Origin: Mustelus asterias
Taxonomy: Eukaryota
DNA: 64,000 nucleotides
Reading direction: 5' to 3'
Assembly (NCBI RefSeq): GCF_964213995.1
Contig: NC_135811.1
Span: forward strand, 35,526,001-35,590,000
The position numbers were made by a program, and so were the translations under genes. This document shows positions 3,487 through 43,667 of this stretch, one piece after another. The notes under the pieces are model-generated. The model was given only the letters and a program-made list of their open reading frames with translations, made no database searches and was not told the origin of the DNA. Within the stretch, counting starts at the first letter, position 1. Each line of letters opens with the position of its first letter.

Positions 3487-3804
3487 ACCAGTATTAGCCT
3501 CCTGTCTACCATGCCCACCAGGTGCTGAGGCCATCACTTACGCCAAATTTTCCAGTCTCTTGACGACAACACCATTAGGCTCCTCCCTGGGAGCAGCCTG
3601 GGCTCGCTTTACCCCCTCTGGGTCACCATTTAACCTGGCACCGGCCATGCTCCTGCCATAAGTACTGCACCAATGTCTGGGTACTTCACCCACTGGCCAA
3701 TCCTTAATTATGATGTGGAGATGCCGGTGTTGGACTGGGGTAAACACAGTAAGAGGTCTAACAACACCAGGTTAAAGTCCCACAGGTTTATTTGGTAGCA
3801 AATG

Positions 3805-3843
3805 CCACTACCTTTTGGAGCGTGCTGCTCCTTCGTCAGGTGG
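3805..3843 (-). ncRNA. Mutated hammerhead ribozyme (inverted PLE arm)
   Basis: CCAC-CTGACGA-A-GGAGCAGCACGCTCC-AAAA-GGTA-GTGG: GAAA is mutated to AAAA and the AGCT palindrome is broken; predicted inactive. Confidence 0.65.
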
Positions 3844-6138
3844 AGTGGGAGATGTGCTCACAAACAGGGCAGACAGAGACACAAACTCAATTTACAGAAT
3901 AATGATTGGAATGCTAATCAAGCTAATCAATGCTAATACAGCTAATCAAGTCTTAAAGGTACAGACAATGTGAGTGGAGACAGCACAGGTTAAAGAGATG
4001 TGTATTGTCTCCAGACAGGACAGCTAGTGAGATTTTGCAAGTCCAGGCAAGTTGTGGGAGTTACAGATAATGTGACATGAACCCAAGATCCCAGTTGAGG
4101 CCGTCCTCGTGTGTGCGGAACTTGGCTATCAGTTTCTGCGGTGTCGTGAAGGTCGCCTTGGAGAACGCTTACCCGAAGATCAGAGGCTGAATGCCCATGA
4201 CCGGTGAAGTGCTCCCCGGCCTTGAAGAGAACAGTCTTGCCTGGTGATTGTCAAGCGGTGTTTATTCATCCGTTGTCGTAGTGTCTGCATGGTTTCCCCA
4301 ATGTACCATGCCTCGGGACATCCTTTCCTGCAGCGTATCAGGTAGACAATGTTGGCCGAGTTGCAAGTGTATGTAACATGTACCTGGTGGATGGTGTTCT
4401 CACGTGAGATGATCCGGCACATCTTGCCGAGGTTGCTGTGGCAGGGTTGTGTGGTGTCGTGGTCACTGTTCTCCTGAAGGCTGGGTAGTTTGCTGCGGAC
4501 AATGGTCTGTTTGAGGTTATACGGCTGTTTGAAGGCAAGAAGTGGGGGTGTGGGGATGGCCTTGGCAAGATGTTCGTCTTCATCGATGACATGTTGAAGG
4601 CTCCGGAGGAGATGTCGTAGCTTCTCCGCTCCGGGGAAGTACTGGACGACAAAGGGTACTCTGTCCACCATGTCCCGTGTTTGTCTTCTGAGGAGATCGG
4701 TGCGGTTTTTCGCTGTGGCGCATCGGAACTGTTGATCGATGAGTCGAGAGCCATATCCTGTTGTTTCAGTGATTGTTCACCATGCACAGGTTCGAACAAG
4801 ACTTTTTCACCACACAGGACCTTCAACCGATGCTATACACTAGATACATCGATGACATTTTCTTCCTTTGGACACATGGTGAACAATCACTGAAACAACT
4901 ATATGATGACATCAACAAGTTCCATCCCACCATCAGACTCACCATGGACTACTCTCTGGAATTGGTTGCATTCTTGGACACATGCATCTCCATTAAGGAC
5001 GGTCACCTCAGCACCTCACTGTACCGCAAGCCCACGGATAACCTCACGATGCTCCACTTCTCCAGCTTCCACCCTAAACACGTTAAAGAAGCCATCCCCT
5101 ACGGACAAGCCCTCCGTATACATAGGATCTGCTCGGATGAGGAGGGTCATGACAGACACCTCCAGATGCTGAAAGATGCCCTCATAAGAACAGGATATGG
5201 CGCTCGACTCATCGATCGACAGTTCCGATGCGCCACAGCGAAAAACCGCACCGACCTCCTCAGAAGACAAACAGGGACACGGTGGACAGAGTACCCTTTG
5301 TCGTCCAGTACTTCCCCAGAGCGGAGAAGCTACGACATCTCCTCCGGAGCCTTCAACATGTTATTGATGAAGATGAACATCTCGCCAAGGCCATCCCCAC
5401 ACCCCCACTTCTTGTCTTCAAACAGCCGCACAACCTCAAACAGATCATTGTCCGCGGAAAATTACCCAGCCTTCAGGAGAACAGTGACCACGACACCACA
5501 CAACCCTGCCGCAGCAACCTCTGCAAGATGTGCCGGATCATCGACACGGATGGCATCATCTCACGTGAGAACACCATCCACCAGGTACACGGTACATACA
5601 CTTGCAACTCGGCCAACATTGTCTACCTGATACGCTGCAGGAAAAGATGTCCCAAGGCATGGTACATTGGGGAAACCGTGCAGACGCTACGACAATGGAT
5701 GAATGAACACCGCTCGACAATCAACAGGCAAAACTGTTCTCTTCATGTTGGGGAGCACTTCAACGGTCACGGGCATTCACCCTTCGGGTAAGCGTTCTCC
5801 AAGGCGACCTTCACGACACACGGCAGGGTTGCTGAGCAGAAACTGATAGCCAAGTTCCGCACACACGAGGACGGCCTCAACTGGGATCTTGGGTTCATGT
5901 CACACTATCTGTAACCCCCACAACTTGCCTGGACTTGCAAAATCTCACGAGCTGTCCTGTCTGGAGACAATACACATCTCTTTAACCTGTGCTTAATGCT
6001 CTCTCCACTCACATTGTCTGTACCTTTAAGACTTGATTAGCTGTATTAGCATTGACTCGCTTAATTAGCATTCTAATCATTGTTCTGTAAATTGAGTTTG
6101 TGTCTCTGTATGCCCTGTTTGTGAGCACATCTCCCACT

Positions 6139-6177
6139 CTGCCTGACGAAGGAGCAGCACGCTCCGAAAGCTAGTGG
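6139..6177 (+). ncRNA. Minimal type I hammerhead ribozyme in PLE terminal repeat
   Basis: CTGC-CTGACGA-A-GGAGC-AGCAC-GCTCC-GAAA-GCTA-GTGG: core boxes intact, stem II GGAGC/GCTCC, palindromic AGCT in place of stem III, stem I with two G-U pairs. Confidence 0.75.
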
Positions 6178-6556
6178 CATTTGCTACCAAATAAACCTGT
6201 TGGACTTTAACCTGGTGTTGTTAGACTTCTTACAGTCCTTAATTAGCCAGCCAGTGAAAAATTGCATCACTCTGACATTCGCTAGTGTAAGTGGACACTG
6301 AAGCTGCCTCTGGGCCCACCAATCACCGATGCTCAACAAGAACAAAATTCATGCCCTAGAGTTACATCTATAATCTTAGTGAAATCCTAGAAATTTCAGT
6401 GCAGAAGGCTTCCATTTCGCCAATCCTGATGATTTCAGTACTAGCTCAACATCAGCTCCAATCCTACTACTTTTACCAATGTTGCTGTTGATCATATTAG
6501 TTCACACACATTTCGGTCCCAATACACTATATTAATGAGTATATCATTTTTTCGTG

Positions 6557-17701: not shown

Positions 17702-17806
17702 CAAAAACAAGCCCAATTCTATGAGAATATTGTCAGAGTGATACGAGCAAAACCGGATTATTTTGCTGTAGGATACTATGGCCAAGGCTTTCCTTCATTT
17801 ATTCGG
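17702..17806 (+). CDS. DOCK1: DOCK1 coding exon D: [35 protein letters not shown]
   Basis: cttttgcAG acceptor, CGG|GTAAGA donor, 105 bp; contains the DOCK-A motif [12 protein letters not shown]. Confidence 0.96.
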
Positions 17807-35930: not shown

Positions 35931-36535
35931 TGGGGCAGATCTTTTCATGCCAGAGTGGCACACATGCCATCAGCCTTATTAGCATTCCCTGCTGCTCAGT
36001 TGCATTTGGAAGTGTAGCAAATTGGCCAGCTCCCACTCTTCAGCCAGCAGAGTTTGGGGGCAGTGATTCATCATCAGGGTGGAGATCTTTGGAAGGCAGA
36101 GAAGAAGATGAATTTCCTAGACTATTTTACGAGGAGCCTGAGTTTGTGTGTGGTGTACATTAGCAATCATTTTCGCTGTCAATCTACTGAATTGACCTTT
36201 ACACTGACTCATAAGTGAACTAGAGTAAATAAAATCAATGCAAGTGCTGCAGCCCTTTGAAAAGCCAGAATTCTCATTGTGTTGATTCAAATCTGTCCTG
36301 AATTTCACCCATTTATACTTGAAAATTGGACACACTGACTCACAATGCTATGGCATGGCAATTTGCAGAATTAAGACGCCTCTCATCTGTTTCGGAAGGC
36401 CTGCTGCTGCCTTACTTCAGGCCTTCCAAGTGGGTCTTGGGCATTAATAGGTGCCTGAGATACCCACTGAATTTTTAGTTGCTGGTCATGCATTTTTCAG
36501 GTAACGGGTAAGTGGTAACAGTTACAAATTACCCC
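35931..36535. mobile_element. GC-rich Harbinger-like non-autonomous element containing a duplicated intronic segment
   Basis: GGGGCAGATCTTT start, AAATTACCCC end; 36153-36281 is similar to 34997-35125. Confidence 0.45.
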
Positions 36536-36885
36536 TAATTCTTTTAAGCCAAGGACTGCGGTTCAGATTGCACATTTTTTCTGAATGGTAAGTTAATATG
36601 TTTAGGAAAGTTAAATTGTTTTTGAAATATAAGCTGTGTGGACCCACAAAGTAAAATTCTGCAGCACTATAAAATATGTTATCTGCTTTTATTTGCACTC
36701 AATGAAAAATCAGTTGTGTTCTCCTAGAGGACTGCTAGTGACGTGCAAGACCAGTAGCATTTTGAACATATGAAAATGATGGGCAGGAAACAACCAACTG
36801 GTCTCCCAAGCCTGCCCACATCATGATGAGTAAGAGTTTTAACAACACCAGGTTAAAGTCCAACAGGTTTATTTGGTAGCAAATG

Positions 36886-36922
36886 CCATTAGCTTTCGGA
36901 GCGCTGCTCCTTCGTCAGATGG
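36886..36922 (-). ncRNA. Minimal type I hammerhead ribozyme (antisense arm)
   Basis: CCAT-CTGACGA-A-GGAGC-AGC-GCTCC-GAAA-GCTA-ATGG on the minus strand. Confidence 0.82.
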
Positions 36923-36948
36923 AGTGGAAATCAGAGCAGATTTCCACT

Positions 36949-36985
36949 CCATCTGACGAAGGAGCAGTGCTCCGAAAGCTAATGG
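36949..36985 (+). ncRNA. Minimal type I hammerhead ribozyme
   Basis: CCAT-CTGACGA-A-GGAGC-AGT-GCTCC-GAAA-GCTA-ATGG; perfect stems I and II; predicted cleavage after A36981. Confidence 0.82.
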
Positions 36986-37250
36986 CATTTGCTACCAAAT
37001 AAACCTGTTGGACTTTAACCTGGTGTTGTTAAAACTCTTACTGTGTTTACCCCAGTCCAATACCGCATCTCCACATCATCACATCATGATGGCCAGACGT
37101 AATTGTTAAAACATTTCTTCACTGCCTGTCACCACGGCACTTACTCCACCTGTCCATAAAGTCATTTTATCCATTAACTACAACTTCTGGTCTGCAGGAT
37201 TGGAGCCCATTCCGAAACTAGTCTTTCACATTTGCACTGATATTAATTCG

Positions 37251-37626
37251 GGGGGAGATGGAGCTATAGTGGTAATATCACTGGATTTCCAGAAGACCAA
37301 TGCTCTTGGGACATGGATTCAAATTTCACCACAATTGGAATTTACATTCAATTAATATATTTGGAATAAAAAGCTATTCTCAGTAATAGTGACCATGCCA
37401 ATTGTTGTAAAAACCCATCTGGCTCACTAATATCCTTTAGGGAAAGAAATCTGCCATCCTTACCTAGGTCTGGCCTACTTGTGACTCCAGATCCGCAGCA
37501 ATGTGGTTAACTCTTAACTGCCCTCTGCCATGGCCTAATAAGCCACTCAGTTCAGGGCAATTAGCGACAAGCAACAAATGCTGGCATTACTGATGGCATC
37601 CTTATTCCATGAAAGGATGAACAAAG
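37251..37626 (+). mobile_element. tRNA-derived SINE, second family
   Basis: Homologous to 35565-35914 (tagggaaagaaatctgccatccttacc, gggcaattag...caaatgctggc). Confidence 0.8.
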
Positions 37627-38125
37627 AATCCTATTTGAGAATGGTTTTCAATAGTATCTATTCCCATTGATTTCTGTGGATATAATGAAGATAGCAATGC
37701 TATATCCTGACTGATAATACCATTTTATGAAATACCTTAGCAAAGACTTTAACTTCAGATAGACAATGTCTATCAGATTTCTTTCATCCACTGTCTTAAT
37801 GACATCCTCAAAAAAATGCTAGTAAATTTGTTAAACATGAACGTCAGAAACTGTTGTGGAGTATTTTAAACCAACACTCAGAGTCTTTGGTTCAAATGTC
37901 AACCAGCCTTTATCATTTTACACAGGCTGAGAGACAGTCTTCACTTGTAAACCAGGAGACTTCTCCAATGATATAGAGTTTTAAAACAGTTCATATACTA
38001 CTCTAGTTGTATTTCAATCACGGTGATACCTACAACAGAACTGACATTATCAAAGGGACTGGAACCTAGGGCAGTGACAGGATAACCACCAACATGTAAT
38101 ATAATTAAGGAATGGAGGAGGCCAT

Positions 38126-38433
38126 TCATAGAATCATAGAACACCTACAGTGCAGAAGGAGGCCATTCAGCCCATCAGGTCTGCACCAACTCTCTGATAG
38201 AGCATCTTATCCACGCCCACACCCCGCCCTATTCCCACAACCCCACGCATTTACCCCGCCAATCCCCCTAACATCTTGGGATACTAAGGGGCAATGTAGT
38301 GTAGCCAATCTACCTAACCTGCACAACTTTGGACTGTGAAAACTCCATACAGGCAGTCACCTACGGTTGAAATGGAACTCGGGTCCCTGGCGCTTGGGGC
38401 AGCAGTTGTAACCACTGTGCCACCATGCTGCCC
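38126..38433 (-). mobile_element. HE1-like SINE
   Basis: Reverse-complement copy with (catagaat)n tail. Confidence 0.88.
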
Positions 38434-38640
38434 ATTGTCTAAACTAAATGGCCTCAGGCAACATATGTTATTCCTGTCACAGAACGAGAAATCTTTACAT
38501 AAAGATTAACTCTGGAGACAGGGACAGCTCAGGATCCATTGTTTTCAGTTGTGGAAATAACTTCAGCACTAATGTCTGTCCAAGACAGACATAGTAAGAA
38601 GTCGAACAACACCAGGTTAAAGTCCAACAGGTAGCAAAAG

Positions 38641-38679
38641 CCACTAGCTTTCAGAACAGGCTGTCCCTTCGTCAGGTAG
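38641..38679 (-). ncRNA. Minimal type I hammerhead ribozyme (antisense arm)
   Basis: CTAC-CTGACGA-A-GGGAC-AGCCT-GTTCT-GAAA-GCTA-GTGG on the minus strand. Confidence 0.7.
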
Positions 38680-38945
38680 GTGGGAGTTCTGATCACAAAC
38701 AGGGCACATGACCATCTCCCATAAACCTACTGACAGGACTTTTAACCTCTTGGACCAAAGCATGCTGGTATTGACTTTTGAACAGGTGCCAGGACCTGAA
38801 TGGGTACTTGCAAGCCTTGAACAGATTGGGCAGTGGCACACTGTGGCCTGTAGTGCGCAAAGGTAACACAGAGGTAAATCTGTAGGCACTGGAGCACTTG
38901 AAGAGAGTAACCATCATGTGCCCTGTTTGTGATCAGAACTCCCAC

Positions 38946-38984
38946 CAACCTGACGAAGGGACAGCCTGTTCCGAAAGCTAGTGG
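38946..38984 (+). ncRNA. Minimal type I hammerhead ribozyme, variant stem II
   Basis: CAAC-CTGACGA-A-GGGAC-AGCCT-GTTCC-GAAA-GCTA-GTGG; one mismatch in stem I. Confidence 0.75.
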
Positions 38985-40849
38985 CTTTTGCTACCAAATA
39001 AACCTGTTGGACTTTAACCTGGTGTTGTGAGACTTCTTACTGTGTTTACCCCAGTCCAACACTGGCATCTCCACATCAAGACAGACATGACATGCAAGCC
39101 AAAAGTGGGTGTGAAGCACCAATCATCTAGTAGGATGTCCTCAGGAGAAGTGTTTGTGATATTGTTTACTAAAACAAACCGTTTGACTCAGGTCTGCACT
39201 GTATACGCTTAGCATCCAAGAATCATTTTGACCCGATAATCGCTGTCGAAAGCCCTACTTCAGAAGCCATTTTGTGAATTCTAAAGACCCCTTTTCCCAG
39301 TGATGGTAAAAGCCTACAGTTTCCTGGCTCTGATCTGTGCCCTTTTCCAAAAGTAAGAAACACAGAAGCTAACTTCCAGTCTAAGGAAATTATGTCTGAC
39401 TCGAAGATATGGACAGGTGTCTTACAGAGCACATGTCCCATCCCGTCCATTGATCACCCTTGGATGGCTATGATACTGGAGCTTTTTCGATTTTGTTAAT
39501 CTATCTAAATAACTATCTATTTTAGTATTAATAATGCTAATTATTTCTGACTACCCCAATCTGGAGCATAAGTATCAAGTAGTGCAGGATTTTGGATCCA
39601 AGGCTGGGACTCTGCTTTTCTGGATTTTGACACCACATAGGATGTTGAACAAGCTGATCAATTAGTGGCCAGGCACCCAATTAAGGATGAAGCAGGCAGA
39701 ATCATCTGACTCTTCTGCCTGCCTAAGAGCCCCTGGCCTACATTTACTATGTGAGCAGCTGCTCTTTATTGCTACTTATCTCCATATCATAAAGCTCAGC
39801 CCCCATCTTCAACCTTGTCCTCCCTTGCTTCCAGAAGCAAGATCACAGCCACTTGGATCCTTGCTATGCACCCTGTAGGGTTACTCTCTTCAAGTGTTCC
39901 AGTGCCTACAGATTTACCTCTGTGTTACCTTTGCACACTACAGACTACAGTGTGCCACAACCCAAGCTGTTCAAGGCTTGCAAGTACCCATTCAGGTCCT
40001 GGCACCTGTTCAAAAGTCAATACCAGCATGCATTGGTCCAAGAGGTTAAAAGTCCTGTCAGTAGGTTTATGGGAGATGGTCATTTGGCAGCTTCACAATC
40101 TGAGAATCAGTTTGAATCTGCCCGACAGTATCTTCTAGTGACCTTATCGTATCCTTAATGCTCTTGACTTCTGAAGTTACTTAACAATCAATGTTACTAT
40201 TACGGCTACTGTTACACATTATCTTCTTTCTGAGATATCTCTCGGCTAATTTTATGGCTGTTTTTGTATTCCTTAATTGCAATGCAATATCCTCATGCGA
40301 ATTAAGTGCCTTAAGGATGTAGAATGCCTTCTGTCCTGGGAAAAAGTAACTTAGTAACTTGTATCAGAATGATGGGGATAAAACAGGTGATGTGAAAAGC
40401 GACAAAACCTCGGATGAAGAAAATTCTTAGACATTGATAGGATGAAGAAATTGCAGAGGTAAAAGGGTAGACAAAATCACAGAGAGACTTTTAATAGGAA
40501 AGGAGGTGACTCTTGAATGCGTAGAAGCAAGAAGATGGTGAGCACAGTATAAAAGAAGCTAGACTAGAACTTTGGAAGTATCGAGTCGTCAGGATAAATG
40601 GAGGCTGGTGTCTCTTTTTGTGTTCATTTCAACTGCAAAATTGTGAAAGAGCCAGAACAAGTAATACTCGTACCACTGCCAAATAAAAATTACTGTGAAA
40701 TGTTATTATGCCGTGACAAATTAGCTGGGGGTGACAAATTTTACTGTCTTCTCCATCCATACTGTGCAGCAGTGAGACTGCAGAAGAGCTAGCTGTCCTG
40801 ATTAGCGAAGGAGCTTCATAAAATTTTATGTTGTTATTTTTTTTTCCAG

Positions 40850-40991
40850 AACAAGATGTTCATTTACAGAGGAAAGGAGTACGAGCGACGTGAAGACTTT
40901 GAAGCAAGGCTATTCACTATATTTCCTAATGCAGAAAAAATGAAGACAACATCTCCTCCAAATGATGACATAAAAAATTCTTCTGGACAGT
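40850..40991 (+). CDS. DOCK1: DOCK1 coding exon E: [47 protein letters not shown](Y)
   Basis: poly-T ccAG acceptor; 142 bp (47 codons + 1 nt); ends at T|GTATCCTT; overlaps ORF 40856..41080. Confidence 0.96.
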
Positions 40992-42417
40992 GTATCCTTA
41001 GAATGTGCTGCAATGTGTATCTTTGGGCAGGGAAGGGTTGCTTTCCTGAGCAAAATAATTTAATAGAAATGCACAAATGAAGAAAATATGAGTGTGCATG
41101 CCAGTTGTGATTTTGGAAAATTTTTGCTAGCCTTATTTCATGTATTGGATCCAAAGCACTTCTTGTACATATTTATTTCATACGGTGAAATTATTATCGC
41201 TAGTACAACAACCAGTAATAAATTGTTGCCAACAGTATTTCACTCTAATTTGTGCGAAATTCAAAATGCGCTTTATAGCCATAGTCCAAATTTAAAAGGA
41301 CAAACTCGATAATTGTTCAGCTGGGTGGTTATTGAAGTTAAATTTTCATGTTAAGTGTGTGTTACTGAAGTCCTCATGACAACACTAGGCATTATGTTCA
41401 CGTGGCATTGCCACAAACATCAGAATATAACCACGTATTTAATGCCTTGCATTTTCTTCTAATTATAAAACTCCTTAAATTTGCTGAAATGAAAATTGTC
41501 AGGAAGGATTTTGAGGTAGATTGCCAAAAAGTAGCTTTGTTTAAAACCAAACTTTGTTTATTTCAATTTTCTTTGATATATGTCTTCAAATTTGGTTAGC
41601 ATAGCTCCTAATTAGTGGTTTTCCACCTGTAGTGTTTATAGTCTAGTAGGAGCTTTGGCAAAATGATATAATATTGTGGTCACAGTCTAATTGCCTGTAC
41701 ATAGAGAAAGATTGAAGAAATATTTATTCCTAAACAGTGTTCCATAAAGGTACCATTTTTTCCTTATGTAAATCAAGTACTTGATACATTTAGTGCAATG
41801 CACATTGACAATAATACAGGTGAACCTCTTTTTTTGACATCTTGTGAGGAATCAGCATCTATATTTGCCTGAGATTTGGGATTTAGGATTTTATTGCTAT
41901 TCTTACAGTATATAAAACGTACAATTTTTACCAATGTAAGTACCTATTTGCTGTTTAATATCATCCTTAGTTTTCAATACTGCAAATGAAATCTTCATAT
42001 ATTTTAATAAAGTAGCTGTAATGAAAAGGACAAAAACTGGATTTTCAAGAAGAATTGGATGATTGCTTTAGAATTACAAAATTTTGAAGTGAAACAGCAA
42101 CTAGCACTTGCATAAAGCTTTTAACATACAAATAAGTTATCCCAAGATGCTTCATGGAGTTGTCATCAACCAAAATGGATGGTGGGCCAAATATGGTGAG
42201 ATATTAGGAGAGGTCAGATGTAGGTCATAAGGAGGAGTGGGCGGTCAGTGAGTTTAAGGCGATAATTCCAAACAATGGCCAGATGTGTGTAATTATGGCT
42301 GCTCATGGTGGGTTGGATAAAGTTCGAGGGTGCTTAATGTGATTCAGCTATATCTGATGGTTAAACTTAGTGGTAATTGAGATACACTGAAGTAAATTCT
42401 TTAACAAACACCTGTAG
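40992..42417 (+). other. U12-type (minor spliceosome) GT-AG intron of DOCK1
   Basis: 5' splice site GTATCCTT (U12 consensus RTATCCTT); branch site TTCTTTAAC at 42397-42405 (consensus TTCCTTAAC) 12 nt before the 3' end; no polypyrimidine tract; the split codon T|AC gives the expected Tyr. Confidence 0.92.
42095..42320 (-). mobile_element. L2-type LINE 3' end inside the U12 intron
   Basis: caactagcacttgcataaagctttta...tcccaagatgcttca...gagatattaggagaggt...aattcca; complementary to the 33850-34198 type. Confidence 0.6.
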
Positions 42418-42499
42418 ACATTCAGTGTTTCACAGTACAAACCATACGTGAACTCCCACCAAAGTTGAAGAACAAGACTGTCTCGGAACAAATATTGAG
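42418..42499 (+). CDS. DOCK1: DOCK1 coding exon F: (Y)IQCFTVQTIRELPPKLKNKTVSEQIL(S)
   Basis: ctgtAG acceptor, AG|GTAATA donor, 82 bp (2+26 codons+2); YIQCFTV motif. Confidence 0.94.
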
Positions 42500-43667
42500 G
42501 TAATATCTTCTACCTACCTTGCTTTATTTATACATATATCAAGATTCATATGGACAAGAAAAGCCCTTTGTCCCATCATAATTCATCAAACGTAAACAGC
42601 CCTTTAAATCCCCTTGCTGCCACTATATTGTTCGTTAAATGCTTTCATAGTTCTTTACTCACCATCCTCCCAAAAAGTTCATTTGTGGTGTTTATCAATT
42701 TCTGTATGAAGAATTTTGTAATATTATTCCTTAAGTTACCTTTTATTCTGAACCTGTATCCTTTATCATAATATCATGATTTAATTTGATGCAGTATTTT
42801 AGATTGACCTTTTCCATATCATTTACCATCTTGCATACGCTGCCTATATGAGATCATTTTTGAGATGCATTCTCTTCAGGATGAAAAGTCTGCTTTTCTG
42901 TATTTATATTTACAATATTTCATATTTTATCAAAATTCAGACATCTTCCACTTGGGATCAACCTTGTTTGTGGCTCTTCTCAGCACTGTCTCCAGTATTT
43001 GAAATCTCCATTTGTTTCTTGGCAACTGGATCTAGGCAAAGTACTCGAGCTGCAATCTGAGCAGAGCAATGCATTGTTTGATTACGACATCTTCTGACTT
43101 GTATTCTGCTGTTAAAAAAAAAGTGGAAAAAAAAACTGCAGGATATTTGGAACTAAAGCAGAGATTTCTGGAAACCGTGAGAAGGTTAGCCGTGATCTGT
43201 GGAGAGAATAAATTAATTAACTGGTTTTAAAACAAGGAATCCACACCCAAGGGGTTAATTTATCTGTTCTATCCACCGGTATTGCCTAATTGCTGAGGAT
43301 TTCCAGCATTTTCTGTTGTTGTATTTTCTACTATTTTTTAGCTTTGTAGTTGCTGCTATATTAAATGTTGAGTCCAATAGGGTGCACAGCATTACATTAA
43401 GTATGCGTGTTGCTTTTCATATCCTTCTTACCTGCTATATTTCACACTTGTCTCCATTCGGTTTCATAATGCCATTGTCACTGCGCTGAGCTAGGAACAC
43501 TGCCCCTTCCCATCTGATCTGACCCACTCTTTCTACCCCCCCCCCTCCTTTTCTCTGGTCTGCCCGCTCCCCCCTCCAACATGTCCCTCCCCTAATCCCT
43601 CTAACCACACAGATTTACCATGGCTAATCTACCTAACCTATACATCTTGGGACTCTAAGGGGCAATT

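Follow-up and report, generated by a model that had tools for sequence, protein, structure and literature searches.

How does a piece of host DNA come to lie, inverted, at the centre of a retroelement hairpin? The question is raised by an insertion in the 64,000-nt window analysed here (the whole stretch of DNA examined; Mustelus asterias, GCF_964213995.1, contig NC_135811.1, positions 35,526,001 to 35,590,000; coordinates below count from its first letter). Two inverted arms, each the 3′ end of a Penelope-like element (PLE), enclose a 205-bp segment of non-element DNA. The predicted 12-bp target-site duplication (TSD) was found on both sides of the unit, with the sequence CAAGACAGACAT at 38581..38592 (+) on the left and at 39077..39088 (+) on the right, where its first 2 nt are also compatible with the PLE end. 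The left arm (38593..38708, minus strand) is the 3′ end of a 5′-truncated element, lacks a tail and has a deletion of 9 nt compared with the right arm (38917..39078, plus strand), which starts at the family base where the left arm ends and closes with a one-sided PLE tail of 33-37 nt (39042..39078, +; four bases are ambiguous in assignment). Between the arms lie the insert (38708..38912, −) and 4 nt (38913..38916, +) that match neither the family nor the source of the insert. An alignment of the two arms contains one 9-nt gap and, over 115 columns, 4 substitutions. Each arm holds a minimal type I hammerhead motif with the core CTGACGA...GAAA, located in the right arm at 38946..38984 (+, core start 38950, sense to the host gene) and in the left arm at 38641..38679 (−, core start 38675, antisense to it). 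The terminal repeats of the original prediction are inverted and carry a hammerhead core each, as described, but they are unequal, the tail being confined to the right arm.

The loop at 38708-38912 is the reverse complement of 39879..40083 (+) with 8 substitutions and no gaps, exactly as had been proposed, and a BLAST comparison within the locus agrees (E ~1e-95). This source lies 791-995 bp past the right TSD. A genome search with the loop, of a type that is not exhaustive, returned three matches: the loop itself, the local source (96%) and a 95-bp match at 77% on another contig. The local copy is the best source of the loop, and within the same search the loop was not high-copy and the unit was not found at unlinked loci. 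Downstream of the source, the segment at 40850..40991 (+) is an exon of a DOCK-family gene, matching DOCK2 (E 1.3e-18) and DOCK5 (E 1.1e-16); a Pfam search of this exon gave nothing useful. The upstream host exon, located by its motifs, ends at 17806. Since these exons flank 17807-40849, element and source lie within one 23-kb intron of a plus-strand DOCK-family gene. The splice donor after the downstream exon (40992-40999) reads GTATCCTT, which we take to resemble the consensus of minor (U12-type) intron donors.

The target itself may belong to a small repeat family. Contigs from runs X1 and X7 join 38432-38587 to 39089-39190 without the element, at ~88-90% identity and 5 nt short of a full TSD copy. 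These may represent paralogous target copies, hinting that the target lies within a low-copy older repeat; the element flanks had no match among the other sampled loci. Loose contig ends in the run data cluster at 39041-39044 and 39078. A contig from run X3 (organism B) is unbroken across the source with 40 differences in ~1,050 nt, while the loop was almost without cover; this run was not used as evidence.

Mirror-image arms are not unusual for this family. Longer family copies contain a reverse transcriptase (RT) domain, with RVT_1 above the Pfam cut-off in two (E 2.8e-9 and 6.6e-8), and in one copy a GIY-YIG match lies downstream of the RT at E 0.0036, below the curated cut-off. The features of endonuclease-positive PLEs found are therefore an RT followed by a weak GIY-YIG match, an inverted copy plus tail, a short TSD and a hammerhead motif. 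Two further hairpins of the family occur in the window, each with short flanking direct repeats: one at 3710-6236 with arms of ~1 kb and a frameshifted RT-endonuclease frame, and one at 36829-37079 with a 6-nt centre. A Pfam search found nothing in the window's own frameshifted PLE copy. Searching the 3.7-Gb genome with a 33-nt tail pattern gave 36,896 exact matches, and 285 distinct inverted-arm hairpins were collected from 320 loci (1.96 Mb). Their centres are shorter than 20 nt in 263 cases, 20-49 nt in 13 and at least 50 nt in 9. A TSD of 8-17 bp adjoins 115 of 272 tailed elements, a more distant match was present for 31 and none was found for 126; the modal length, 12-13 bp, accounts for 66 of the 115 adjacent TSDs. 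The layout of an inverted 5′-truncated copy beside a tailed copy is published for PLEs (PMC8557442, PMC3846280; these and later papers are cited from partial text), as is the tail (PMC8557442, PMC11167929). A hairpin with a tail is thus the usual form in this family and has been published before.

The hairpins also bear on how many cDNAs each insertion requires. In 185 hairpins whose arms overlap and carry a single tail between them, counts of the tailed against the tail-less arm being longer were 17:13, 20:27, 11:20 and 23:28. Neither arm is systematically longer, and two independent cDNAs are therefore needed in at least many copies. Two other loci show unusual architectures. A nearly identical unusual centre is present in two hairpins 0.8 Mb apart on contig C1 (L201:4999-5025 and L202:5002-5033), which suggests that a whole hairpin was duplicated or remobilised. 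At L228:3680-5534 a PLE insertion lies between direct repeats of ~330-350 bp with 86% identity, which may be a target duplication of unusual length or a tandem repeat that served as target.

Local capture is not a one-off. As the original prediction had proposed, the loops of other inverted pairs were mapped to their sources. Five of the nine long centres (at least 50 nt) derive from local DNA: the focal one and those of L127, L128, L135 and L150. Excluding the focal event, captures were found in 4 of 284 sampled hairpins (1.4%). L127 holds 236 nt in inverted orientation together with another inverted piece, taken from a tandem repeat nearby; L128 holds 134 nt inverted, L135 has 111 nt direct joined to 129 nt inverted, and L150 has 71 nt direct. 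The pieces at these four loci (71-240 bp) come in both orientations, from the tail side or the other side, with sources about 55-1,000 bp away, and each capture hairpin is bounded by a TSD match of 12-16 bp. The direct pieces at L150 and L135 exclude a rule that patches are always inverted by fold-back on a resected strand. The rate applies to a non-random sample, which consists of the first-listed places along contigs with just 1.5 kb of flank at many loci; the four other captures all fall within the initial 6.5 Mb of contig C1, and 110 hairpins added later contained none.

Several candidate loci and searches gave no capture. The 188-nt non-PLE centre of L126 (L126:5038-5225; G000:C5:133832037-133832224), in an old asymmetric hairpin, was rejected because no source lay within ~4-5 kb and the genome search returned no close match, only one of 113 nt at 77%; the original may lie far away or no longer exist. 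The centre of L162 is PLE-related sequence, that of L185 consists of short repeated snippets, and that of L247 is a repeat present in 178 other loci and probably a later insertion. Thirty loci selected with a pattern designed to enrich for foreign loops were mainly near-perfect palindromes without capture, and 13 picked for a strand pair spaced by 130-1,230 nt had nothing but PLE sequence at the centre. No patches were seen in single-arm insertions, a comparison of low power because just 15 of these had a TSD within 30 nt.

Patches and arms show similar divergence. At the focal locus loop and source differ by 3.9% and the arms by 3.5%, in line with the similarity originally noted, and over the five pooled events patches differ from their sources at 19 of 886 positions (2.1%) and arms from each other at 10 of 418 (2.4%; p=0.84). 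Single loci vary around these values: patch differences are 6/236 at L127, 5/134 at L128 and 0/71 at L150, and arm differences are 1/98, 1/65 and 3/108, respectively. These data fit the proposal that nearby DNA was copied into a single TSD-bounded PLE insertion around the time of insertion. Gene conversion between the arms could reset the arm clock, so that equal divergence is weak evidence of timing.

The junctions show how little sequence joins patch and arms. The nearest subfamily continues differently inside the arm, which places the end of the left arm at 38708 with 1 nt in common with the source. The ATG(A) overlap proposed for this junction is mostly not PLE sequence, as the family reads differently there, and only 1 nt of it stands. 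The right arm begins at 38917 after the 4 nt of neither origin, three of which mirror the first three source-derived bases at the left junction. Both focal arms end at the identical family base, and TGTGTCTT precedes the arm in 102 family matches. Across the capture loci the computable overlaps are 1, 3, 2 and 2 nt, and two junctions have 4-nt gaps; the left junction of L128 and the right junction of L150 were read by eye. Also judged by eye, microhomology tends toward the source end farther from the break and filler toward the nearer end, a pattern that can be compatible with either direction of copying. At L128:4648-4665 (G000:C1 near 2.07 Mb) patch and arm are separated by 18 nt of filler in which part of the element's own TSD recurs, as in iterative short templated synthesis.

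For the focal locus we favour, with a probability of roughly one half, a model in which a truncated mirror-image PLE insertion acquired its centre as a bridging patch, copied from DNA 0.8 kb away while the insertion was being sealed. The order of events that we infer is as follows. The endonuclease would make a staggered cut with the nicks 12 bp apart, and each cut strand would prime reverse transcription; synthesis would begin at the tail end on one strand and 33-37 nt further in on the other. Both cDNAs would stop after ~120-160 nt at the same base. Being of the same polarity, the two cDNAs would be unable to anneal, and would therefore be bridged by a template switch to local DNA: one end would switch, through microhomology of 0-4 nt, to DNA close to the break, copy 205 nt and join the other end. 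The copying enzyme would be either the RT or a host end-joining polymerase. For the Poseidon element of the anole, the available text reports that in vitro both strands are cleaved and extended and that the boundaries of the tail correspond to two RT start sites (PMC11167929).

The strongest challenge to this model comes from the symmetry of the arms. In all five capture hairpins the two arms stop no more than 3 nt apart on the PLE sequence, while 51 of 203 non-capture hairpins have arms ending within 4 nt, and 46 of 101 when both arms are at most 200 nt. The association is nominally significant (one-sided Fisher, p=0.0012; 0.0046 without the focal locus; 0.048 without the focal locus and with both arms at most 200 nt) in a comparison that drops 77 of the 285 hairpins (26 selected with the enriching pattern, 14 from the chosen strand pairs, 15 lying at the edge of a locus and 22 whose arms do not overlap). 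As a post hoc observation from the same data it is a lead only. The frequency of near-exact symmetry suggests either that the two cDNAs frequently terminate at a shared RNA end, or that an arm is copied from its partner. Capture in symmetric hairpins is predicted at least as well by a later break at the centre, or by one cDNA folding back on itself, as by the bridging of two cDNAs.

Palindromes can break at their centre, and a near-perfect hairpin could have formed first, broken there afterwards and been mended with a patch templated nearby. We consider this unlikely, though it deserves to be weighed first. Besides the symmetry of the captures, the patch of L150 is identical to its source while its arms differ. 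Against it, many perfect or near-perfect hairpins persist unrepaired, the patches of L127 and L128 are more diverged than their arms and the pooled divergence is equal, and the asymmetric arm loss that would be expected after resection from a central break is not seen.

Schemes in which one arm is written from the other are a little less probable again. In one, which we regard as doubtful, the Penelope RT at the end of a broken RNA would hop to DNA or nascent RNA at most 1 kb off, copy towards the break, re-prime on its own cDNA and write the second arm. In the other, slightly more doubtful still, the cDNA would leave its RNA, copy local DNA, fold onto the end of its own arm and copy that arm. 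Such a snap-back would explain why the focal arms stop at the same base and why their mirror symmetry extends 3 nt into non-family sequence, and at L127 it extends 4 nt into source-derived sequence, but matches of 3-4 nt can arise by chance. It is also consistent with the abundance of near-symmetric short-armed hairpins noted above, and self-priming has been proposed for PLE palindromic junctions (PMC3846280, partial text). However, L150 and L135 fit two independent cDNAs equally well or better, and the right arm of L150, read by eye, has extra family bases that also match the source. Moreover, in this family the tail-less arm frequently exceeds the tailed one in length, which is impossible for a copy of the tailed arm.

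A jump of the RT from PLE RNA to the nascent host pre-mRNA, copying a piece of the intron, is less likely than any of these. The host gene runs on the plus strand with the source in the same intron as the element, so that the left-arm cDNA would find the template it requires in the pre-mRNA of that gene; one such case is reported for L1 in the accessible part of PMC10191854, and a single strand could have templated both pieces of L135, provided that each cDNA end jumped once. The microhomology at the left junction is just 1 nt, though, and DNA templates account for all of the events without transcription.

It had further been suggested that the ribozyme-bearing ends might release and remobilise their cargo, as a retrozyme or Pack-like unit. 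Judged from the sequence, both cores match the minimal type I hammerhead architecture described for PLEs in the available text of PMC4209133, although an Rfam search of 36000-43000 returned no hammerhead and three chance microRNA matches. The left-arm motif departs from the family majority in stem I and in the closing base of stem II, the right-arm motif by one change in stem I. The presence of a core in both arms and of a tail with RT start sites would favour such a unit, as would a report that, in a rotifer, host DNA lying between PLE terminal repeats can be mobilised by them in trans, although those repeats are in direct orientation (PMC3846280, partial text). Antiparallel hammerhead pairs 100-700 bp apart have been noted before in schistosome PLEs (PMC4209133). 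Yet the focal hammerheads lie on opposite strands, and therefore no transcript carries both, whereas minimal hammerheads are thought to need a partner in the same RNA (PMC4209133). A through-transcript of the plus strand is predicted to fold into an arm-arm duplex that includes the ribozyme (-280 kcal/mol, z ~-20). Non-LTR retrozymes, in the accessible text of 10.64898/2026.07.22.740005, are similarly small, non-coding, derived from PLE terminal repeats and equipped with type I hammerheads, but they are same-strand tandem repeats that can release monomers, and the non-exhaustive genome search found no second copy of the focal unit and no other copy of its loop. The proposal is already largely refuted and we regard it as very improbable.

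An assembly artefact is more remote still, for although no run contig spans the whole structure, the loop differs from its source at 8 sites, the TSD is perfect, the pattern recurs at four other loci, and in run X1, which may be the assembly's own sample, one contig follows the loop version over 38708-38893 (186 nt) and another the source side over 39053-39927 (875 nt), both without a difference.

Returning to the bridging-patch model, its closest parallels are published. Endonuclease-positive PLE insertions with inverted pLTRs and a tail (PMC8557442, PMC3846280, PMC11167929, each in part) share with the focal insertion an inverted truncated copy next to a tailed copy, a tail of 30-40 nt, a short TSD, a minimal hammerhead in the terminal repeat and an RT plus GIY-YIG in longer copies. 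In the available text of these accounts, however, the inverted copies are directly adjacent, whereas the focal arms are separated by a locally copied 205-bp piece. Captured host DNA in rotifer PLEs lies between direct repeats or forms spacers, with no local source named in the portion of PMC3846280 at hand. Among the titles and abstract openings returned by literature searches, none described local patches in PLE hairpins.

The patches also resemble products of L1 integration. L1 templated insertions make up 22 of ~3,600 events, are usually shorter than 250 bp and are typically copied from within 15 bp of the site (10.1101/2024.08.27.596794), and L1 foldback inversions comprise four cases of 52-220 bp, reported together with one pre-mRNA co-insertion (PMC10191854); according to the available text of these two sources, both kinds form during integration. 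In a small proportion of PLE hairpins, as of L1 events, a TSD-bounded insertion contains non-element DNA of less than ~250 bp copied from near the target. The two differ in that L1 templates typically lie within 15 bp of the site or in a foldback of the 5′ flank, while PLE patches come from 0.05-1 kb away and lie between cDNA ends of the same polarity; the greater template distance counts against the bridging model. Furthermore, twin priming of L1 yields non-overlapping halves, whereas the focal PLE hairpin has mirror arms.

Taken together, these results identify a recurrent and mechanistically useful scar of a kind known from L1, not a new element. The focal product is a dead scar, and this locus alone has no evident function. 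Its value lies in recurrence: applied to the 36,896 exact-tail copies, the rate of 1.4% would imply a few hundred events, as an extrapolation from a non-random sample. Should the doubtful scheme of an RT that hops and re-primes be true, symmetric patch-bearing hairpins, probably several hundred in the genome, would record the making of PLE inverted repeats, and patched hairpins would be a steady supply of small local duplications and inversions. How PLE integration is completed and how the inverted repeats form is described as an open question (PMC8557442, PMC11167929, partial text). As the patches record the copied strand, its side and its distance, and as the family runs to tens of thousands of copies, they make this integration question testable genome-wide.
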